DNA of 64,000 nt from a virus, in the IMG/VR virus record IMGVR_UViG_3300032163_000009, positions 1-64,000 of that record; one strand, given 5' to 3'. The translations under genes and the position numbers were made by a program. Position 1 is the stretch's first letter; each line of letters starts with the position of its first letter. The notes beneath the pieces were generated by a model. It had not been told where the DNA came from and did no database searches. It saw only the letters and a program-made list of their open reading frames with translations. Positions 38,205 through 47,037 of this stretch are shown one piece after another.

Positions 38205-38922
38205 TTATATGCTCGAACACGGCGCGGGTGAGGGCGTCGTATAGAATGGCAACTTGCGTGAGACTGACATACGTTTGAGCGTCCAACTCACGCTTGGACT
38301 CCGTTTGAACCAACTTGCGTTTCAATTCGATCAAACGATTCAACTCATCAAACAGCGCCCCTTCACGATTGCCTTGCTCTAACACACTTTGCAGCGCGAC
38401 TACGGCTTGGCCTTGCGCTTGAGCGATGGCGAAACTTTCTGTTTTGAATTCAGCACTGTCGGGATCGGGATTGATCGGCTTGCGCTGCAAAGTGAGCAGC
38501 AGCTCGCGCAAATTTCCTCGGGCTTGCTGCCAGGCCGTCATGCCTGCGCCGGTGGTGCTTAGGCGCTGCATCACACCGATAATTTGAGCGTCGAGCAAAG
38601 CGATGTCGGGGCGCAGGCCGATCAAAGACGGATCACTCAGCGCGTCGTCAAAGGGAATCTTCCACCGCGCAGGCAGGTGCGGCAGATAGCGGCTGCTCCC
38701 TTTGCCTTCGTATTGCGGGCTGGCAATGCCGCTCGGTGTCTTGCCGCCGTGTCGATCGCAGCGGTGATTCAGCATCGGCGTCTTGAGACACGGCCCCGCT
38801 GCGCCGGACGACTTCTTGGCTCCGCAGACCCGCTTGCCTTTTTTTGTGCCTTCAACGCCCAGGCAATAACCGTCGGCATCCAGCGGCAGGTTAAACAGAT
38901 TCCCGAAGGGCTGATTAGGCAT
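38089..38922 (-). CDS. terminase small subunit-like (HGGxSTG-type)
   Basis: CGAK..C..RC.RHGGKTP; upstream of terL. Confidence 0.8.
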   Translation of the reverse strand: MPNQPFGNLFNLPLDADGYCLGVEGTKKGKRVCGAKKSSGAAGPCLKTPMLNHRCDRHGGKTPSGIASPQYEGKGSSRYLPHLPARWKIPFDDALSDPSLIGLRPDIALLDAQIIGVMQRLSTTGAGMTAWQQARGNLRELLLTLQRKPINPDPDSAEFKTESFAIAQAQGQAVVALQSVLEQGNREGALFDELNRLIELKRKLVQTESKRELDAQTYVSLTQVAILYDALTRAVFEHISDKPTLAAIQADWNRLLDQPRQSALRASDTTDSNLVDG

Positions 38923-39388
38923 CGATGACCTTGCGGCGACGCGCGACGCGGCGCTGGCGGCCTTGCCTGCGGCCTGTCTCGTAAATGGTAATGCCGTGCA
39001 AGGCTTTCATGAGCTTCGCCTTGAGGATATACAGGCGTGTTCGAACGCCCTTGAAATCTTCTACAACCTTTTGACCGTTCTCGATATAAACGAAATCGGC
39101 CATGTAGGTTGCGATGTGGAGGCCGTTCACGTCCAGCGAATACTCGACTTGCAATTCCAGATCGGTAATCTCACCGGCGCGCTCCCGTATCTTCAACTGG
39201 CTGTACCGAGTCGCTTCGCCTTGACTGGCAAACCGGATGCCATCTACCCAGGTAACCTTAGCCTTGAACTTGTTTTGTTTTTTCGGGGCGTGCTGGATCA
39301 GCGCTTGGTATTCTTCGGACGTGTATTCTTCGATCGGTTGATCGGCAACACGCGGCAAGAGCAGCGCTGTCGAAATAGAGCGCTTCAT
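38915..39388 (-). CDS. DUF1064 family (PD-(D/E)xK) nuclease-like protein
   Basis: NKFKAK..VDGIRFAS..EA.RY, YMADFVY, VVEDFKG. Confidence 0.9.
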   Translation of the reverse strand: MKRSISTALLLPRVADQPIEEYTSEEYQALIQHAPKKQNKFKAKVTWVDGIRFASQGEATRYSQLKIRERAGEITDLELQVEYSLDVNGLHIATYMADFVYIENGQKVVEDFKGVRTRLYILKAKLMKALHGITIYETGRRQGRQRRVARRRKVIDA

Positions 39389-39921
39389 AGTTGGACCAGC
39401 CAGACGCGGCCAGCGACGAGAAAGGTCGGTTCGCGTTCCGGCCAGTATTCTGAAAAGGCGCGGACCACGCCTTCCTCCCAATAATCATCACCGCAGACAA
39501 GGCCTCCCGGCTTCACCTTTGGCACCCACAATTTCAAATCTTGGATCACCGCTTCGTAGAAATGGCTGCCGTCGATAAACAGCAGGTCTAACGATCTGTC
39601 GCGGAACAACGGCGCGGCGTCAGCACTACTTTTGAAAATAGGCACGATGCGGTGTAGCACACCGGCGCTCTGCACATTAGACAGGAACGATTGATAGAGC
39701 TTTAAGGGTTCATCCACAAGGCCTGTGCCGCTGTCGCTGCCTTGCCAGTGATCGATACAATACACCACGCCTGCGCTGTGCTGCGCCAGCGCAATAGCCG
39801 AATGGCCCAGCCACGAGCCAACTTCGGCAATAGCCGATTTGCCTTGCGCGACGTTAGCCAAAGCCTCAAGCATTTCTTTCGGATGCCAGTTGTCTGGCAC
39901 GGCAATTGTATTGGAGTTCAT
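39385..39921 (-). CDS. class I SAM methyltransferase (Methyltransf_24-like)
   Basis: EVGSWLGHS, CIDHW, LFIDGSH.YE, KPGGLVCGDDY. Confidence 0.9.
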   Translation of the reverse strand: MNSNTIAVPDNWHPKEMLEALANVAQGKSAIAEVGSWLGHSAIALAQHSAGVVYCIDHWQGSDSGTGLVDEPLKLYQSFLSNVQSAGVLHRIVPIFKSSADAAPLFRDRSLDLLFIDGSHFYEAVIQDLKLWVPKVKPGGLVCGDDYWEEGVVRAFSEYWPEREPTFLVAGRVWLVQL

Positions 39922-40796
39922 AACGACACCACCTTTAAGAATTCTGCACGAGTCGAAAGGTCTGTTCTAAACGCGCCACGCATGACAGATGTTTTCATGG
40001 TCAGCGGCGTCTTGATGCCGCGCATGGCTGCGCAGGTATGCACACCCTTGGCAAACACGGCGACATCAGGTGTGCCGGTGACTGCGCTGATGTCAGTCGC
40101 AATGTCAGCGACCAGCCGTTCTTGAATCTGCAACTTGTGCGCGTGCTTGTGGGCAATGCGGGCGAACTTCGACAAGCCTAAAACTTTTGAGCCGGTGAGC
40201 ACGCCGATCGACAAATCACACCAGAACGGCAAGAGGTGATGTTCGCACAAACTCCATACCCGAATGTCTTGCACGACAACCATTTGATCGGCTTCAACTA
40301 CTTCAAACGTGGAGTCTGCATTCGTTTCTTTATAGCGCATGAACTCCAGCCACGCGGCGGCGGCGCGACGCGGTGTCTCGATCAAGCCTTCGCGCTGCGG
40401 GTCTTCGCCAATCGTTTTCAGCAAGTCTCGATACAGGCGCTCCACCTTCGTGATAAATTTGGCATCAGTGAGCAGCGGCGCAGGCGGAGAGAGCAAGACG
40501 ATCGTCTCCGTGTGGCGAGTGGAATATAACTGATAACGCTGCTCGATCTTTTCCGCTGTTTCCATTTGCTGCGCGAACACATATAGCCCCAAGCCTGGCA
40601 GTTCGCCATCGATGACCGTGACTTTAACCGGCTGGCCTTCAAAGACAGCATCATCGGATAGTCCAAGCCGTTGCCCGGCGTTGACATCGCGGACAAAGGC
40701 GGCGGATTGATCGCCGCGCAGTTCGACGCCGTACGGATAGGTCTTCATCACTTGCAAACCGGCAAAGTGCATGTGTTGTGGATCAGTGAGTATCAT
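39918..40796 (-). CDS. folE: GTP cyclohydrolase I with ~110-aa N-terminal extension
   Basis: REGLIETPRR, SLCEHHLLPF, GLSKFAR, LQIQERL, HTC..MRG. Confidence 0.95.
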   Translation of the reverse strand: MILTDPQHMHFAGLQVMKTYPYGVELRGDQSAAFVRDVNAGQRLGLSDDAVFEGQPVKVTVIDGELPGLGLYVFAQQMETAEKIEQRYQLYSTRHTETIVLLSPPAPLLTDAKFITKVERLYRDLLKTIGEDPQREGLIETPRRAAAAWLEFMRYKETNADSTFEVVEADQMVVVQDIRVWSLCEHHLLPFWCDLSIGVLTGSKVLGLSKFARIAHKHAHKLQIQERLVADIATDISAVTGTPDVAVFAKGVHTCAAMRGIKTPLTMKTSVMRGAFRTDLSTRAEFLKVVSL

Positions 40797-40815
40797 TTTA
40801 CTTTTACCTTCGCCT

Positions 40816-41664
40816 TTACCTTCTGATTGGGATTTTTCTCGGCGCGGAACTCGACGCGAGGTAATCACCGGCCATGTATTCTAAAGCGCGGCCGCGTGCA
40901 TTCTTGCCGCCGACCTCAGCCGCGATAGCGTCGATCGCTTGATTGATCACGCCTTGCTGACTGGCATGCACTAGAAAGGACAGATAGCCCCAATCTTTTT
41001 GAGGCGGCGACACCTGCTTGGACACCAGCAGCATGATCGCCTGCTCATCTTCCGTGACACCGTGTTCCGCCTTGAGGCCGTCCAGCGCTGCTCTAAATTT
41101 TTGGGCTTCGCTGCGCGGCAGGGTGAACAGGAAATTGACGTGCGCAATCAGCGCACCTTTTGAATCAGCCGCCGCGCGGGCTTCACCTTCTCCGCCTGCG
41201 TTAGCGCCGTCCAATATCTTTTGCCAATCGACACCCGCTGTAAAGTTTGCGATATAGGCGGGGCTGAGTCCGGCATACTTGATCAGCACAGACGGATCGG
41301 GCAGCGAGCTAACCAGTGCGGCCATTTTGGTTACGTCATTGCCACCGCGCAGCGCATTCAAAGCAATGGTCAACGTCTTCGCTTCGTCGTCCGTGCCTTC
41401 CCATTCGATGACAGGAAACAATGGCTCAGTGGTTAGCAACAATTCTCGATAGCGTTGTTCACCGTCCACGATTCGCCAAAAGTCGTCACCGGCCTTGCGT
41501 CGCCCTGGAAACACATGCTGACATAGGATGCCACCGAACATGCCGTATTGATCCAAGGTGTTGCCCAACGACGCGTGAGTATCGGCATCCATTTCATTCG
41601 GATTCCACGGATTCGGTTTGATCTTGTCGCGCGGCACCATGATCACTTGATTGTAGAATTTCAT
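40816..41664 (-). CDS. ParB/Srx N-terminal domain protein
   Basis: PNPWNPNEM, IVDGEQR, TIALN.LRG. Confidence 0.9.
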   Translation of the reverse strand: MKFYNQVIMVPRDKIKPNPWNPNEMDADTHASLGNTLDQYGMFGGILCQHVFPGRRKAGDDFWRIVDGEQRYRELLLTTEPLFPVIEWEGTDDEAKTLTIALNALRGGNDVTKMAALVSSLPDPSVLIKYAGLSPAYIANFTAGVDWQKILDGANAGGEGEARAAADSKGALIAHVNFLFTLPRSEAQKFRAALDGLKAEHGVTEDEQAIMLLVSKQVSPPQKDWGYLSFLVHASQQGVINQAIDAIAAEVGGKNARGRALEYMAGDYLASSSAPRKIPIRR

Positions 41665-42617
41665 TGCCACACCACTCCCCGCGTGCGCCACAGGTCAGTC
41701 ATGTTGCGCTCTACCTGCCATAGCACTTTCAGGTTAGCCAAAAAGACTTTGCCTGTGACCGCTCGCTTCGAACCTGAATCAGATTGCGCATTGTCAAAGT
41801 CAAACCATTCACGGGATAGTCCTTGATGCAGCAGCTTGTCGATGTCCAGCGGGTCTTTGGCTTGATGCTGGCCGATGCGGGTAAAAGACATCTTGCCTTC
41901 GGCGGGCGAAAATAAAGACAAGCCCCACAGCGCGGCGGACTTCCACGAAATCGAATCGACGCTATACACGGGCAGCGCTTGCATGAGTGCGATCGAGGTC
42001 GCCTTGAATAAGTGCGTCTTGATCTGACGCTGGTAGGCATCGACCGCCACGCCTCTGATCAACGCTTGAGCAGCGGGCGTGCCGCTGCGCATGATCTCCG
42101 CACCGGCTGCGAGGCCGATATACTTCAAGCCTTTGCGCTTGATGAGACTTTGATAGCCAGCCCAGCCGTCTAACGGCGACCACACATATAAAATTTCAAT
42201 GCCAGTTTCTTGGGCGACGGCTTGCCACACTTCATCGCGCCATCGATCGATCACGTCGATCCCAAACTCCATTTGCAAATCCAACTCCACCATGTAGTTA
42301 GGCTTCAGCGGACAGGTCAAGACTGTTTCCACATATCGATCGCGGAAGCGGCGGGCTTCGTCAATCTTGATTCGTTCGCCGCGTCGAAAGCGCTGATGAA
42401 AAGAATGCGCGCCGGAGTCGAGGAGCACATCACACGGATCAAGCGCAGCGTGCATGGCTTCCAAACAGTTGCGCAGCGAGTTGGCGCCGCTGCTCTTGGT
42501 CTTATTGTGCTGAACGATCGAGGTGAGTAAATGGATCTTCGGCGGTCGCGCAGGTAAAGCCGTCTCGACCCACTTCACTTTCTGTTTGCTGTCTACACCG
42601 GCGAGTAAGACATTCAT
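41661..42617 (-). CDS. TGT-fold (DpdA-like) deazapurine DNA transglycosylase
   Basis: LLDSGAHSF, ELD, KTHLF and SVDSISW motifs; context. Confidence 0.75.
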   Translation of the reverse strand: MNVLLAGVDSKQKVKWVETALPARPPKIHLLTSIVQHNKTKSSGANSLRNCLEAMHAALDPCDVLLDSGAHSFHQRFRRGERIKIDEARRFRDRYVETVLTCPLKPNYMVELDLQMEFGIDVIDRWRDEVWQAVAQETGIEILYVWSPLDGWAGYQSLIKRKGLKYIGLAAGAEIMRSGTPAAQALIRGVAVDAYQRQIKTHLFKATSIALMQALPVYSVDSISWKSAALWGLSLFSPAEGKMSFTRIGQHQAKDPLDIDKLLHQGLSREWFDFDNAQSDSGSKRAVTGKVFLANLKVLWQVERNMTDLWRTRGVVWQ

Positions 42618-43624
42618 GTCCGCAGCCTCGTGACAATACCTTGCGCGTTGTCTGACCAGCGCGAAGTATAGGCTAAAGCGAGAGGTTCGAAGTCGCGGTG
42701 ATGCAGACGCTCGACTAATTGATCGAAGGTGGAGTAGAGGGCTTCACTTGAAACCATTTCGGGATAGCAAGCCCGATCAGGCACGAGGACTTCACAGCCG
42801 TACAAGATGGCTTCTTGCAGCGCGTAGCCGAATGTCTCTTGCTGCGCCGTGCTCAGAAACCAACGGGCGTGTTTGACGAGGCTGAGATATTCCGTTTTGG
42901 TTAAGCCTGCTTCATACGACACATTGAGCGGCAGGTTCGGCAGCGCTCGACCGTTGCCGCAAGAAGTGATCAAGAAATGCAAGTCGGGCACGGCCGCCGC
43001 AGCGGCGAGGAATTCGGCCAAGCCTTTTTCAGTTGCGGGGCGGTGCGGCCAAATGCAGTAATTCTGTTTAGCGTGCGGTGTTTGCCAACTGACTAATTGA
43101 TTGTACCAATTGATATTCCAGATCAAGCCGGTGACGCGCACCTTGCTGTCCGGCAGATCAAAATACTTTCGCACGCGCTGCGCATGGAACTCGCTGCCCA
43201 CATAAATTTCAGAGGCCAGTTGATGCCAGCTCCGTTCAGCGTTATCGCTCCAGCGGCGCAACTGCTGGACGAAATCTGTTTCATCGGCGCGTCCGGCATA
43301 GTTGAAGCCAACGATTCGGATAGTCAGTTGCTGCAATTCAGCGAGGTAGCCGATGGCTTCCAAGCCCGGAAAGAATAAGTCGCCAACGAGAAAGACGTCG
43401 CCGGAGTGAATGAATTTCTGCGCAAAGAGTTGCGTGACCATTTTGAGTTGTTCGGCCTTGAACGCAATGGTGTTGTTCACGTCCAGAAATTCACCTGACT
43501 GGATTAAGACGCGCTCAAAGCCGTCGGGGTAAAGCGTGACATCTATCAGCGGGCGCAGCGTCTCATTCATCATGACGGTGTAGCGATTGACGATGTTCTC
43601 GATCGGCAAATAATACAAAGTCAT
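42614..43624 (-). CDS. GT-B (GT4-like) glycosyltransferase
   Basis: WPHRPATEKG and STAQQETFGYALQEA..GC..P....YPE. Confidence 0.9.
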   Translation of the reverse strand: MTLYYLPIENIVNRYTVMMNETLRPLIDVTLYPDGFERVLIQSGEFLDVNNTIAFKAEQLKMVTQLFAQKFIHSGDVFLVGDLFFPGLEAIGYLAELQQLTIRIVGFNYAGRADETDFVQQLRRWSDNAERSWHQLASEIYVGSEFHAQRVRKYFDLPDSKVRVTGLIWNINWYNQLVSWQTPHAKQNYCIWPHRPATEKGLAEFLAAAAAVPDLHFLITSCGNGRALPNLPLNVSYEAGLTKTEYLSLVKHARWFLSTAQQETFGYALQEAILYGCEVLVPDRACYPEMVSSEALYSTFDQLVERLHHRDFEPLALAYTSRWSDNAQGIVTRLRT

Positions 43625-44634
43625 TTCTCGACCTCATTGCCCTTGAACATATTGACTTGAATGTGGCCTTGACTGCGGGCGTTGAACAAACGCCCTTCGG
43701 GGCAGTGCTGACACATCTCAGGCTTGTCCGTCGATTTCATGCGGCGGCGAAACTCGGCATACTTCGGCCCGTTCCAAATCTCCAACGGCGATTGCTCAAA
43801 GATGTTGCCCATCACATTCAAGCCAGCCCAATCCCGATCGCACGGCACGACATTGCCATTTACATGGATCGTCATGCCGTAAAACGCCTCGCGGCAAACG
43901 TCGTCCGGTTGCAGCCCGCCTTTGTCGGCGATCTCGCCTCGGAAAGAATCGAGGAACTTGTAACGCACTTCGTCAGCGTGCAAGCCGCCTGTCCAGTCAA
44001 TGAACTGCGCCTCGGTGTATTCCGGCACGCCATTCAGCATGATCGTTTGAGCCACGGCATACGGGCGCTGCTCGCGCGACAGGATATTGATCACGCGCTC
44101 CCGCAGCAAGTCCAGTCGACCGTTCACCCGCATACTCGCATACCGATCGGGATCGAGGCTATCCACATCCATCACAAGGAAATTCAAGCCAGCGGCAAAG
44201 GCGCGATCGAGTTTGTCGGGGGTAGCGGGCAGCAAGTTGGAAGCAATGACGGTATAGATATTGCGCTGCGTGCAAGCGGCAATGTAGTCGGCAATATCGT
44301 TCTGCATGAACGGCTCGCCAAAATGAAACAGTTCGAGCGACTTCACCCACGGCATTTGATCGAGGATCGATTCGAATTGACCAAGCGGCATCACTGCATT
44401 CAAGTCGCGTTGGCCGTGAACTTTGAGATCGGTGGTGCGCGGACAAAACGGACAGGCGAGATTGCAGCGCGAAGTCGTTTCAACTTGATACAAGCGCGGC
44501 AACGTCACCGGCTCGATCGTGAACCGATCCTGCTCTACTTCGGAGAGCAGCGCCGGAAAATCCATTTGCTCAAAAGTAAAATCGGGCAGGTTACTCAGCA
44601 CACCTTTCAAGCGTGGGTCGTGTTGATCGATCAT
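43621..44634 (-). CDS. radical SAM enzyme with SPASM/Twitch domain
   Basis: CNLACPFC and FGEP; C-terminal C..F..I..NG.V.PC..D..GNI..IWN..CQHC. Confidence 0.92.
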   Translation of the reverse strand: MIDQHDPRLKGVLSNLPDFTFEQMDFPALLSEVEQDRFTIEPVTLPRLYQVETTSRCNLACPFCPRTTDLKVHGQRDLNAVMPLGQFESILDQMPWVKSLELFHFGEPFMQNDIADYIAACTQRNIYTVIASNLLPATPDKLDRAFAAGLNFLVMDVDSLDPDRYASMRVNGRLDLLRERVINILSREQRPYAVAQTIMLNGVPEYTEAQFIDWTGGLHADEVRYKFLDSFRGEIADKGGLQPDDVCREAFYGMTIHVNGNVVPCDRDWAGLNVMGNIFEQSPLEIWNGPKYAEFRRRMKSTDKPEMCQHCPEGRLFNARSQGHIQVNMFKGNEVEK

Positions 44635-44981
44635 GCCGCTGCCTCCGTCTCAACCGTTGCGCCGTTCTCGCCGTCCTCACTGACTTCCACTTTGAACCAA
44701 CGCCCGGCATAATTCAATTCACACCATTTGAGCAGCGCGGTCGCCATGACTTCGCAACTCTCGTCGCCGATGAGCGTGGATTGGTAAGTGGCAAACCATT
44801 CGATGGCGTGACTTTGCAGCGCGTGGTATTCGACATCGCGCTCAGTGTGCGTTTGCTCGAAGTCAAGGCGCACTTTGAAAACGTGCCGATGCGGACTCCG
44901 CAGATAAGCGGTATCCAGCGGCGCGTCCGGCCAGCGATGGAAGCCGATTTGAGAAAAGGTTACGAAGCCGGTGAGTTTCAT
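44631..44981 (-). CDS. QueD-like T-fold protein (DpdL-like, putative CDG decarboxylase)
   Basis: H.WP, LRSPHRHVF (LxxxHRHxF), SCE.MA, VSEDGENGA. Confidence 0.8.
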   Translation of the reverse strand: MKLTGFVTFSQIGFHRWPDAPLDTAYLRSPHRHVFKVRLDFEQTHTERDVEYHALQSHAIEWFATYQSTLIGDESCEVMATALLKWCELNYAGRWFKVEVSEDGENGATVETEAAA

Positions 44982-45021
44982 AGACTGCTCCTGGTAAGGT
45001 TAATCAACGACAAGGGTTGAA

Positions 45022-45732
45022 TCACACGCCGCGTCGATTGCCGAACAGTTCAATGTGAAAGCGCGGCGTCAAATGATAACCACGCTGCAAGATAGCCGGC
45101 AATAGTTCTTGAGCGCGTCGTTGCAAGACTTGTTGATCGATGCCTTCCAACATGATGTAGACGTGGGGCAGTGGGATGGCGTGCGCCTTGACCAGCTCAT
45201 CGACTTCAAGCAAGTCTTGTTCGTTCATCACGACAAACTTAAACCACGCGATCGGTGAACGCGCAAACCAATCAAGCGTTTCAGGATGGTAGCGCTTCTT
45301 GAGTGCATTGCCGCTATTGATCAATTTTGGGCTGACGTTGTATTGATCGGCAAAGTAAGGCGTCGGGGGTGTGACGGTGCCAGCCGTTTCGATCTGGACA
45401 CGCCACTTCAGCACGCGCAGGCGGTCGATCAATTCTCCGAGGCTGCGCCATTGCAGCATCGGCTCGCCGCCCGTCACAACGAGGGACTTGATTAACGGAT
45501 TGTGTTGCCCTCTCTCTAATATCCTCTCAAGACAGTGTTCAACCGACATAGACTTGATCTCGACGTTGGGATCAAACTTTTCCCAATTCCAAGTATACGG
45601 GGTGTCGCAAAAAACGCATTTCAAATTGCAGCCCGCCAATCGAAGGAAGTATACCGGCTCTCCGATCGACACCCCTTCGCCTTGAATCGTTTCGCCGAAC
45701 ACCTCGGAAATCGCCAGCCGCTCATTCGACAT
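45022..45732 (-). CDS. queE: 7-carboxy-7-deazaguanine synthase
   Basis: TIQGEG, FLRLAGCNLKCVFCDT, TGGEP, ETAG, VSPK, KFVV. Confidence 0.95.
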   Translation of the reverse strand: MSNERLAISEVFGETIQGEGVSIGEPVYFLRLAGCNLKCVFCDTPYTWNWEKFDPNVEIKSMSVEHCLERILERGQHNPLIKSLVVTGGEPMLQWRSLGELIDRLRVLKWRVQIETAGTVTPPTPYFADQYNVSPKLINSGNALKKRYHPETLDWFARSPIAWFKFVVMNEQDLLEVDELVKAHAIPLPHVYIMLEGIDQQVLQRRAQELLPAILQRGYHLTPRFHIELFGNRRGV

Positions 45733-46204
45733 ACTGCACCTCGCACACGGCGGAAGTCTTCGGCGTCTCTTTCACTTCAACGCTGGACACCCACACCCCT
45801 TGCCCATCTAGCAAGCGGCTGGCAACTTGCTGAAAAAAGATCGCCAGACATTCAGCAGTAGTGTCGCCTACGTTCAGCAAGGCAACATCTTCAAGCGGCA
45901 AGCTATAAGACTTTTGATTGTGTTCAAACAAAACGAAGCGATCTTCAAACTCTTCCACCAAAGCTGCTGGTAGCAGCGTCCGGTGATCGAGGTGATCGTC
46001 CAGCCAATTTTTGAACACGCCGAGATCGGTGTAGTCTTTGATCCAATTCTGGTTAGTCAATGGGCCGGAGAGCGTGAGGCTGACCAACCAGTTGTGGCCG
46101 TGCAAGCGGCCGCACTTGTGATCAGGTGGAACGGTGAATAAAATATGCGCAGCGGAGAACTCAAATACTTTGGTGATCGTTAGTTTAGTTGAAAGCGCCG
46201 GCAT
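45722..46204 (-). CDS. queD: 6-carboxy-5,6,7,8-tetrahydropterin synthase
   Basis: FSAAH, CGRLHGHNW, LDH, TTAECLA, VKET. Confidence 0.95.
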   Translation of the reverse strand: MPALSTKLTITKVFEFSAAHILFTVPPDHKCGRLHGHNWLVSLTLSGPLTNQNWIKDYTDLGVFKNWLDDHLDHRTLLPAALVEEFEDRFVLFEHNQKSYSLPLEDVALLNVGDTTAECLAIFFQQVASRLLDGQGVWVSSVEVKETPKTSAVCEVQYVE

Positions 46205-46223: not shown

Positions 46224-46253
46224 ATTATGCCACGAATGGGCAAGCGCTGTCAA
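46224..46253 (-). promoter_or_regulatory. sigma70 promoter of the modification operon
   Basis: TTGACA-18-CATAAT with TG extension. Confidence 0.7.
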
Positions 46254-46259
46254 TTAGCT

Positions 46260-46418
46260 AAAACAAAACGACTCGAACTTCTGCGCAGAGTTCGAATCGC
46301 TTCGTGTCATCCGTAAGATGGACGTCGCTATTATAAAATTATGCCGATCGTGCGGCCTCGTCGGCGCGAAGCCGCACACTACAAAACAGCAACTCGATCG
46401 GAGGGATCGAAGAACACG
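46260..46418 (-). ncRNA. putative ~160-nt small RNA with an anti-SD (CCUCC) loop
   Basis: TGGTATGAT upstream; three hairpins with G-U pairs in the minus sense; terminator hairpin + TTTTGTTTT. Confidence 0.55.
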
Positions 46419-46535
46419 CTGGCATCATACCACACTTTGTCAATGGCCGTCGAAGGGCAGCTCAGTCAAGACATTTAAGAGATCAGTCAACAGGCAGTCC
46501 TGTCTAAGCATTTGCACCGGCAGTGTTAGGTGGGC

Positions 46536-47037
46536 TATATCTGCTCAAAGACAAACTGAGCAGGCAAGATATTACGGCACAAATAAATACTTTGAAAGGT
46601 ACAGCGTTGGAGAACCTGGCTTTTCTCTCATAATCAATGCGCTTGTCGAATACCATAATTTCAAACTTATTGGTGGACAGCAATTGAAAGCGAATTTTGC
46701 TATCAAATAAACCAGAGTCATTCAGTAGCATGGCAAACGGTTTTTGGAGTGCATACAATCTTTGAAGTATAGGCTCTCTTAGGCTATATGGCGGATTTGA
46801 AATAATCACGTCATATCTTTTTGGCTCATACCGAAAGAAATCTTGACCTGTTTCAATGTGCGAATTGGTTACGGTGAAACCGTGTGACCTGAACACACTG
46901 ACAAATTTACTATACTCTTTATCGAAGGGACACCAGACGATTGAACCGGTTTTTACATATTTCACAAGCGGCTCAATTGCATAAGCCTTTGTGTAGCTTT
47001 CATCGTGCCTGTTGAACTTGTATTGACGTGTGGACAT
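46536..47037 (-). pseudogene. AT-rich adenine DNA methyltransferase with a frameshift near the C-terminus
   Basis: VWCPFD, GQDFF and IISNPPYS. An alternative frame gives SIYLCRNILPAQFVFEQI*. Confidence 0.75.

Follow-up and report, generated by a model that had tools for sequence, protein, structure and literature searches.

The stretch of DNA analysed here (the window, 64,000 nucleotides) is the first 64 kb of IMG/VR virus record IMGVR_UViG_3300032163_000009, a viral contig of 77,735 b with a CheckV completeness of 73%. Its minus strand carries an operon of nine genes, served by one promoter and spanning positions 46253 to 39385. The genes encode the enzymes for synthesis of 7-carboxy-7-deazaguanine (CDG), a DpdL homolog, a radical S-adenosylmethionine (SAM) enzyme additional to QueE (rSAM), a glycosyltransferase (GT), a putative transglycosylase of the tRNA-guanine transglycosylase (TGT) superfamily (DpdA), a ParB-fold protein and a SAM-dependent methyltransferase (MT). 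An earlier note on this DNA had read the locus as a QueC-less deazaguanine DNA-modification operon. All nine genes were found where that note had placed them, on the minus strand and with family support, and gene identities, DpdL homology and the absence of QueC support a QueC-less, DpdL-type 7-deazaguanine DNA-modification operon. The evidence also supports that the GT and the rSAM belong to the deazaguanine pathway and are not bystanders. The features of the locus, in the order of transcription, are as follows.

46224-46253, minus strand: sigma-70-type promoter directly 5' of queD (TTGACA, 18 nt, TG-extended CATAAT as TGgCATAAT; 11/12 matches, the best of the region)
45722-46204, minus strand: queD, 6-carboxytetrahydropterin synthase, 160 aa (PF01242 (PTPS) 9.6e-24, TIGR03367 2.9e-17, phrog_2389 4.2e-24)
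45022-45732, minus strand: queE, CDG synthase, 236 aa (phrog_2076 2.2e-52; Radical_SAM 9e-13)
44631-44981, minus strand: dpdL, QueD paralog with LRSPHRHVF, 116 aa, proposed CDG decarboxylase (phrog_17812 2.3e-17)
43621-44634, minus strand: BtrN-like "twitch" radical SAM enzyme, 337 aa (Radical_SAM 5.3e-13, SPASM 9.4e-17)
42614-43624, minus strand: GT-B, GT4-like retaining glycosyltransferase, 336 aa (EX7E, E263...E271; R195/K200; structure model)
41661-42617, minus strand: dpdA, divergent TGT-superfamily DNA guanine transglycosylase, 318 aa (phrog_887 7.5e-12)
40816-41664, minus strand: ParB-fold protein, 282 aa, proposed DpdB-like NTPase partner of DpdA (phrog_2159 2e-11)
39918-40796, minus strand: folE, GTP cyclohydrolase I, with the catalytic domain in the C-terminal 175 aa (PF01227 1.1e-50, NF006826 1.1e-48)
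39385-39921, minus strand: class I SAM-dependent methyltransferase, 178 aa (PF13578 (Methyltransf_24) 1.2e-22, TylF 1.9e-5)
38915-39388, minus strand: DUF1064/Holliday-junction-resolvase-like gene, downstream context outside the pathway (PF06356 5e-17, phrog_190 7.6e-32)

The operon and its deazaguanine genes

The promoter at 46253-46224 is followed by AAGGAG and the ATG of queD. Six 4-nt overlaps of the ATGA type join dpdL to the rSAM gene, the rSAM gene to the GT gene, the GT gene to dpdA, dpdA to the ParB-fold gene (most likely starting with the ATG at 41664), folE to the MT gene, and the MT gene to the DUF1064 gene. With its start at M32 (39388) the DUF1064 gene overlaps the MT stop in this way and is translationally coupled to it. 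Further downstream lie an open reading frame (ORF) of 277 aa, TerL and the portal gene, so that the string of genes is unbroken from the promoter to the terminase. A nucleotide search with the whole operon gave no match in 50,697 phage records, the set used throughout for comparison with cultured phages.

FolE, QueD and QueE convert GTP to CDG, and homologs of all three occur together in the operon. QueD of the window has the canonical CxxxHGH motif in the form CGRLHGH. QueE matches TIGR03365 at 6.9e-29, which is under the cut-off of that model. FolE carries an N-terminal extension of about 115 aa (40464-40796, minus strand) that has no Pfam match and for which the gene start is inferred. The N-terminally extended FolE and the methyltransferase are features specific to this phage; the FolE ORF of the related locus L007 is likewise long (302 aa). 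Neither QueC (PF06508) nor QueF (PF14489) had a match anywhere in the 77,735-b record. The absence of queC and queF that had been noticed within the window is therefore borne out beyond it. Similarly, QueC was not found in four complete related viral genomes (with direct terminal repeats, DTR), three of which hold the rSAM gene, nor in ACP17, PA5oct, BCSR5, Phosso and phiST, the cultured phages that were checked.

By sequence, the QueD paralog at 44631-44981 is a true DpdL, with 39% identity to the DpdL of ACP17 (E 5e-18) and 30% to the founding member, CGPG_00067 of phiST (E 3e-11). The nine residues L27, H31, R32, H33, F35, S75, C76, E77 and E102 do not vary among 20 homologs, and neither do the motifs LxxxHRHxF, SCE and EDGEN. 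The naming of this gene as DpdL in the earlier note is thus upheld by its motif, by homology to the founding member and by a FolE, QueD, QueE and DpdA context that lacks QueC. A profile built from the 20 sequences matched the whole of the PTPS homolog PH0634 (2dj6) at an E of 0.014, hhalign found no relation between the profile and the window's single QueD, and DpdL had no Pfam match either. The assignment of DpdL to the T-fold is that of Cui et al., who obtained an HHpred probability of 99.9% for the phiST protein (PMC10516641). The same authors proposed that DpdL is a CDG decarboxylase yielding 7-deazaguanine, an activity that is predicted, and found that dpdL and dpdA of ACP17 expressed in Escherichia coli produced no 2'-deoxy-7-deazaguanine (dDG) (PMC10516641). 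Long forms of DpdL (246-283 aa) are found in L058, L059-L068, L073 and L074 (e.g., L066:6180-6926). These have an N-terminal extension of about 130-150 aa without a Pfam match.

In Cellulophaga phage phiST dDG replaces 100% of G (Cui, Hutinet et al., NAR 2023, PMC10516641). Like the window, phiST is QueC-less and has FolE, QueD, QueE, an LxxxHRHxF DpdL and a TGT-superfamily transglycosylase in one cluster. It differs in having no GT, second radical SAM enzyme, ParB-fold gene or MT, and MazG and a P-loop kinase are found instead. The transglycosylases differ as well, that of phiST being DpdA3 whereas that of the window belongs to phrog_887 together with DpdA of the Seuratvirus/Nonagvirus type. 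The phiST kinase, CGPG_00066 (L077:46381-46860, AAA_18), lies between DpdL and DpdA3, and CGPG_00068 and CGPG_00045, MazG and a phosphoribosyltransferase, are nearby. Kinase, MazG and phosphoribosyltransferase are compatible with a route to complete replacement of G by dDG through the nucleotide pool.

The glycosyltransferase and the radical SAM enzyme

The AlphaFold model of the GT (pLDDT 95.1) has the GT-B fold with two Rossmann domains. VIA gave Z scores of 25.8-21 over 290-320 residues to sucrose-phosphate synthase, BshA, LmbT, PglA and the tetrahydrobiopterin (BH4) glucosyltransferase, and Foldseek matches reached E values down to 6e-12. The match to Pfam Glycos_transf_1 is below threshold (5.6e-4, 19.9 bits vs. 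a cut-off of 26.4), and many members of the family carry a precomputed PF00534 match. E263, E271, R195 and K200 are invariant in 37 homologs, the last two forming the basic pair expected to contact the diphosphate of the nucleotide sugar, and on the model the enzyme looks catalytically competent.

The co-occurrence of the GT with other genes was determined in a profile scan of IMG/VR, in which 66 viral contigs with a GT homolog were found and partners on the same strand were counted. DpdL was present in 60, FolE in 60, QueE in 54, a DpdA of the phrog_887 type in 36 and a longer DpdA3-like protein in 17. At least one deazaguanine gene was found on the GT strand in 65/66 contigs, and none in the remaining one. 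It is this co-occurrence with DpdL, FolE and QueE that places the GT in the pathway. Among the cultured-phage records the GT was found in 22, DpdL in 24 and both in 17, including ACP17, eleven PA5oct-like phages, BCSR5, X1, BUDD and Phosso; in ACP17, PA5oct and Phosso they stand side by side. The phages ACP17 (Acidovorax), PA5oct (Pseudomonas), BCSR5 (Burkholderia), X1 and BUDD (both Xanthomonas) and Phosso (Sinorhizobium) resemble the window in their homologs of DpdL (30-42% identity) and GT (25-29% identity) but lack the BtrN-like rSAM and the MT. In 185,579 prokaryote genomes the GT family had three matches, all of them on small contigs of metagenome-assembled genomes, and a cultivable lysogen was thus not among them. 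Judged by this distribution, the GT family appears to be virus-restricted and a core partner of DpdL.

It is conceivable that the DNA of the phage contains plain dDG or its carboxylated form (dCDG), as in phiST and Vibrio phage VP1, and that GT, rSAM and MT serve another target (a glycan of the host envelope, a phage protein or a small-molecule by-product) or that the GT is a helper or salvage enzyme. Plain dDG is the sole product ever measured for a DpdL-containing phage, 7-deazaguanine has no evident sugar acceptor, the usual substrates of GT4 enzymes are lipids, polysaccharides and small metabolites, and the MT is not conserved with the pathway. On the other hand, phiST has DpdL but no GT was found in it, and it is therefore uninformative on clusters that carry a GT. 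Moreover, the GT gene is set between dpdL and dpdA and is co-inherited with deazaguanine genes in 65/66 contigs, with two DpdA subfamilies and in many gene orders, which would not be expected of a bystander function. The restriction of the GT family to viruses and the failure of ACP17 dpdL and dpdA alone to yield dDG also speak against plain dDG, and we regard it as rather unlikely.

An observation on one of the cultured phages concerns the product itself. PA5oct DNA resists cleavage at G-containing restriction sites and is cut by nucleases specific for modified G, the base being chemically unidentified (PMC12191111). In PA5oct an ORF of 172 aa, EST35_0320 (L008:8800-9318), lies between DpdL and QueE and resembles NAD-dependent epimerases/dehydratases of the short-chain dehydrogenase/reductase (SDR) type. 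It could be the SDR counterpart of a radical SAM sugar dehydrogenase, cf. NeoA and BtrN. Among the neighbours of homologous GTs, GlmS and a deacetylase of the LmbE type (PhiXhv-15) and an additional GT (L016) are likewise sugar-related. In the record of the window no genes for nucleoside diphosphate sugar synthesis (Epimerase, NTP_transferase) were found, so the donor would be a nucleotide sugar of the host.

The structural matches of the GT also bear on a different reading of the gene pair, in which DpdL and GT, together with FolE, form a pterin branch that makes a pteridine glycoside (cf. the tetrahydrobiopterin glucoside of cyanobacteria) beside a separate CDG/dCDG modification of DNA. UDP-glucose:tetrahydrobiopterin glucosyltransferase is indeed among the matches (5zer with Z 21.8 and 17% identity; 9v0w in Foldseek), and DpdL is a paralog of PTPS and QueD whose profile reaches PH0634 at 0.014. 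However, a dozen further GT4 enzymes match the GT at least as well as the BH4 enzyme does, the Cys that is catalytic in PTPS and QueD is missing from DpdL, a sepiapterin-reductase-like gene is not present, and a pterin glycoside is of no evident use to a phage. With the DpdL-GT pair linked to QueE and a DpdA, such a branch is extremely improbable.

The rSAM has a CX3CX2C motif (C57/C61/C64) and four further Cys (C247/C265/C308/C311), all conserved in 36/36 sequences, and no other conserved Cys. Four conserved C-terminal Cys imply one auxiliary cluster and thus an enzyme of the twitch/BtrN-like type rather than a seven-Cys SPASM protein. The auxiliary Cys are spaced 18/43/3, close to the spacing of the auxiliary ligands in BtrN, which we take to be 19/44/3. 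A full SPASM peptide or cofactor maturase is not indicated, as the protein lacks the seven-Cys motif and all NCBIfam maturase models scored far under their cut-offs. The earlier description as rSAM/SPASM consequently holds for the radical SAM domain and the SPASM-family match, and is to be amended to twitch/BtrN-like with four auxiliary Cys. BtrN was the best match by sequence in the Protein Data Bank (PDB; phmmer 8e-12) and also by structure: the model (pLDDT 93.7) superimposed on BtrN in VIA with a Z of 19.3 and an rmsd of 2.7 A over 203/214 residues at 22% identity. The next structural matches were within 1-2 Z units, i.e., SuiB (18.1), DesII, SkfB (17.7), ChlB and BlsE (17.3), and three of the top six (BtrN, DesII, BlsE) are sugar or cyclitol enzymes. 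In BtrN itself (2-deoxy-scyllo-inosamine dehydrogenase, PDB 4m7s/4m7t) a radical SAM core is combined with a twitch domain in which four Cys bind a single auxiliary 4Fe-4S cluster; the phage enzyme differs in an N-terminal extension of 45 aa.

The family of the rSAM is sharply delimited. It comprises about 83 further clusters formed at 90% identity (84 with that of the window) with at least 48% identity to the window's protein, after which identity drops to 41% and then to 34% or less, and it is found almost wholly on metagenomic contigs of 89 kb or less. A tblastn search with the protein gave no match in the cultured-phage records. The earlier note had suggested looking for rSAM, GT and DpdL together in other phages. 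Thirteen viral contigs hold all three genes, and in 13/13, as well as in L005 and the window, the rSAM gene is flanked by dpdL on one side and the GT gene on the other; in a 14th contig with rSAM, dpdL is cut off by the start of the contig. The other 52/66 GT contigs lack a BtrN-like rSAM. We infer that, in this subclade, the rSAM assists the GT by tailoring the sugar.

It may instead be asked whether the rSAM, and not DpdL, performs the core chemistry, either a BlsE-like decarboxylation of CDG or a functionalisation of C7/C8 that makes an acceptor for the sugar, with DpdL binding, carrying or catalysing something else. The top structural matches include the radical SAM decarboxylase BlsE, the activity of DpdL is a proposal, and other DpdL clusters hold a viperin-like radical SAM enzyme (L016) or PP-loop enzymes resembling phosphoadenosine phosphosulfate (PAPS) reductase, which suggests that the carboxyl group is not always simply lost. 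Yet the rSAM is missing from most DpdL-GT clusters and from every cultured-phage record and so cannot be the core step of the class, and in sequence, Cys spacing and structure its closest match is the sugar/cyclitol dehydrogenase BtrN. We therefore consider a core role of the rSAM quite unlikely and sugar tailoring the better assignment.

The clusters of related phages differ in their further enzymes. The DpdA3-type cluster of L016 (8567-17494) begins with an additional GT of 463 aa and the family GT, after which come a B-family DNA polymerase, DpdL, an ORF of 333 aa, a viperin-like radical SAM enzyme, a DpdA3-like protein (a weak match to NCBIfam DpdA, 3.5e-4) and GroEL, with GroES upstream. 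PAPS-reductase-like PP-loop genes separate a shortened radical SAM gene from the GT gene in L058 (9037-9477) and L062 (5884-6399), and one lies near DpdL in BCSR5 (L002:9258-9905). It is tempting to speculate that the PP-loop enzymes could adenylate the carboxyl group of CDG as QueC does, a hint that some DpdL clusters conjugate the carboxyl group and do not remove it. In its chemistry the DpdL-GT class is diverse, and the carboxyl group of CDG may not be discarded in every case.

The last gene of the operon, METHYLTRANSFERASE, is TylF/Methyltransf_24-like and translationally coupled to folE by a 4-nt overlap. A homolog of this MT was found in 0/66 related GT loci and close viral relatives were not found; distant homologs are listed in mycobacteriophages and cyanophages without deazaguanine annotations, as far as the listing itself and not the gene neighbourhoods are concerned. 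The MT was therefore rejected as a conserved member of the pathway. It was also rejected as DpdM, the preQ1 N-methyltransferase, which is a DUF3109 protein (YkgJ-like); with QueC and QueF absent there is no preQ1 pathway for a DpdM-type reaction. A possible role would be O-methylation of the sugar or of the base, cf. HuiC. The earlier proposal that rSAM, GT and MT build an undescribed deazaguanine is supported in part, by co-occurrence and synteny, as to the membership of GT and rSAM in the pathway, and does not extend to the MT.

DpdA and its ParB-fold partner

DpdA of the window had no match to the Pfam TGT family and only noise in a sequence search of the PDB, and is for this reason called divergent. 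Its placement follows from PHROG membership and from matches of the sibling DpdA in L004 to the annotated DpdA of Seuratvirus, Nonagvirus (9g/JenK1-type) and Iggy phages. In 24 homologs DSGA (D67-A70), D113, H202 and S219-x-D221-S222 (SxDS) are invariant. In ACP17, BCSR5 and PA5oct a longer protein, read as DpdA3-like, is found beside the GT, with no adjacent ParB-fold gene. A weak TGT signal was obtained for it in BCSR5 and in an ACP17-like homolog, and from the weak TGT/DpdA matches of its homologs the DpdA of ACP17 would be the protein of 424 aa.

The product of the gene next to dpdA matches ParB-like PHROGs (2e-11 to 6e-8) and, weakly, Noc and Spo0J (0.013 for Spo0J), and carries VDGEQRY at ORF residues 75-81, i.e., a DGEQR motif. 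The gene adjoins dpdA in the window and in 5/5 contigs retrieved with the rSAM protein (L003-L007), in either order, and is found beside dpdA in 18/66 GT loci. In L027 (10993-12516) a natural fusion is found as a single ORF of 507 aa with DpdA at residues 1-227 and ParB at 276-424, which supports that the two proteins work together. A combination of a TGT-like transglycosylase and a ParB-fold protein is also found in DpdA/DpdB of Salmonella Montevideo, where DpdB has DGQQR in place of the DGEQR found here. The ATPase of DpdB is required for insertion of the base by DpdA (Gedara et al., NAR 2023, PMC10164549). The Salmonella system differs in that it inserts preQ0 made by QueC, which DpdC converts to ADG, and in being part of a restriction-modification island. 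Neither DpdA nor the ParB-fold protein of the window has detectable similarity to the NCBIfam DpdA model or the DGQHR/DndB-type models, respectively. As the ParB-fold protein had no match to the NCBIfam DpdB, DGQHR and DndB-type models, the fold may have been recruited independently here. A prediction of the complex of DpdA and the ParB-fold protein scored 0.00, which weighs neither way.

The ParB-like domain and the proximity of the terminase had led to the suggestion that modification is coupled to packaging, with base exchange linked to it through the ParB-fold protein and the adjacent terminase. The operon does continue unbroken into DUF1064 and TerL, the cluster is closely followed by a TerL homolog in 7 other contigs, and some relatives have a fusion of DpdA with a capsid-protease domain of the XkdF type. 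The ParB-fold protein nevertheless follows DpdA rather than the terminase, as seen from the adjacency of the genes and the fusion, it fits the DpdB paradigm of an NTPase needed for transglycosylation, and in ACP17, PA5oct, Phosso and L016 the module is surrounded by replication genes such as those for DNA polymerase and primase. The suggestion is therefore not sustained and coupling to packaging appears very unlikely. The DGEQR motif, the conserved adjacency to dpdA and the one natural fusion favour a role of the ParB-fold protein as a DpdB-like partner of DpdA over a link to packaging.

Domains of the XkdF type are found in a distant clade with DpdL and GT. DpdA-like proteins of L062 (8004-9620) and L066 (8515-10548) have a C-terminal XkdF-type serine protease domain (PF14550, 3e-25 to 7e-30), and an ORF of 329 aa located 3' of the GT in L058 (12167-13156) has the same domain (3.7e-26) but did not match DpdA in the searches made. 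In that distant clade the transglycosylase may accordingly be targeted to the capsid or packaged.

Proposed pathway and product

The genes described above can be arranged in a pathway. FolE, QueD and QueE would convert GTP to CDG, which would then be processed by DpdL, by decarboxylation to 7-deazaguanine according to the published proposal. The virus-specific GT4-like GT would add a sugar from a host nucleotide sugar, and in this subclade the BtrN-like rSAM would tailor this sugar by oxidation, decarboxylation or deamination. The TylF-like MT may methylate the sugar-bearing product in this phage alone. The basic TGT-like DpdA, together with the ParB-fold DpdB-like NTPase, would swap guanine in the phage DNA for the deazaguanine base as in the DpdA/DpdB paradigm of Salmonella. 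It is probable that the operon belongs to the QueC-less DpdL class of phage DNA-hypermodification systems and that its product, present in virion DNA, is a 7-deazaguanine that carries a sugar and blocks restriction. For the DpdL-GT class including ACP17, PA5oct, BCSR5, X1/BUDD and Phosso, we find the case for a glycosylated 7-deazaguanine in virion DNA, remodelled by the rSAM in this subclade, evenly balanced.

The order of the last steps can be considered separately. GT, rSAM and MT are acidic (pI 5.0-5.6) vs. a pI of 9.35 for DpdA, which, like the precedent of huimycin, leans slightly toward the free base being tailored prior to its insertion. In huimycin synthesis by Kutzneria albida, HuiG (a GT4-type enzyme using UDP-N-acetylglucosamine, UDP-GlcNAc) acts along with the O-methyltransferase HuiC (PMC7439116; bioRxiv 10.64898/2026.04.15.718813). 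Compared by description, both systems have a GT4-type GT and a SAM methyltransferase to decorate a free 7-deazaguanine base derived from FolE, QueD and QueE. The differences are that huimycin is a secondary metabolite and not part of DNA, that the substrate is preQ0 and that QueC is needed. The bulky base may be completed in its free form and only then be exchanged into DNA by DpdA together with the ParB-fold NTPase.

Several points weigh against a sugar-bearing base. First and mainly, decarboxylated 7-deazaguanine offers no obvious O-acceptor for a sugar; candidate attachment sites are N2 (as in huimycin), the carboxyl group of CDG if DpdL is not a decarboxylase, or a substituent at C7. Second, decarboxylation by DpdL is itself a proposal, for the founding members too. 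Third, known phage DNA glycosyltransferases (the HY126 GT with Z 19.7 and T4 AGT with Z 17.7) score below small-molecule GT4 enzymes in comparison with the GT, and the matches are generic, so that the acceptor is not settled by them. Fourth, the lead of BtrN over the peptide maturases SuiB and SkfB is merely about 1 Z unit. Fifth, the MT is tied to the pathway solely by its position in this single operon. Finally, the record is only 73% complete by CheckV, and the likely product is deduced from gene content and co-occurrence alone.

Glycosylation of modified bases as a protection from restriction is known from other phage GT-B enzymes, namely the alpha- and beta-GT of T4 acting on 5-hydroxymethylcytosine (5hmC) and the arabinosyltransferase of HY126 acting on 5-hydroxycytosine (PMC13326640). 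These act on a pyrimidine with a hydroxyl group as acceptor, whereas the pathway that accompanies the GT of the window makes a purine analogue. No description of a DpdL-GT-rSAM module or of a glycosylated deazaguanine product in DNA was found in full-text searches of the literature, and Cui et al. (2023) make no mention of a glycosyltransferase (PMC10516641). Within the known modification of DNA by 7-deazaguanines, the BtrN-like enzyme is the feature specific to the subclade. To our knowledge, natural glycosylation of DNA is confined to pyrimidines, i.e., 5hmC, 5-hydroxymethyluracil (5hmU) and 5-hydroxycytosine, and the eight 7-deazaguanine bases that we know of in DNA carry small groups at C7 only. 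We know of no sugar-bearing purine in natural DNA, and this one, if true, would be the first.

A deazapurine with a sugar attached would represent a chemical class new among DNA bases. If true, it would account for the failure of DpdL and DpdA alone to reconstitute dDG, for the modified G of the PA5oct-like jumbo phages that are used in research on therapy, and for what modification-dependent nucleases and glycosylases act on. New enzymes for DNA labelling would be a further gain, namely a purine-directed GT and a radical SAM enzyme tailoring the sugar. As several cultured phages carry the DpdL-GT pair, the prediction is directly testable.

Two further observations concern the region 5' of the operon. 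An ORF of 177 aa (46504-47037, minus strand) matches only the middle of phrog_799, a DNA methyltransferase family (positions 204-349/458), and is by sequence probably a truncated or frameshifted methyltransferase gene. Between this remnant and the queD promoter (46260-46460, minus strand) a promoter-like site (46453-46424) and a terminator-like hairpin (46411-46393) enclose a short non-coding unit.

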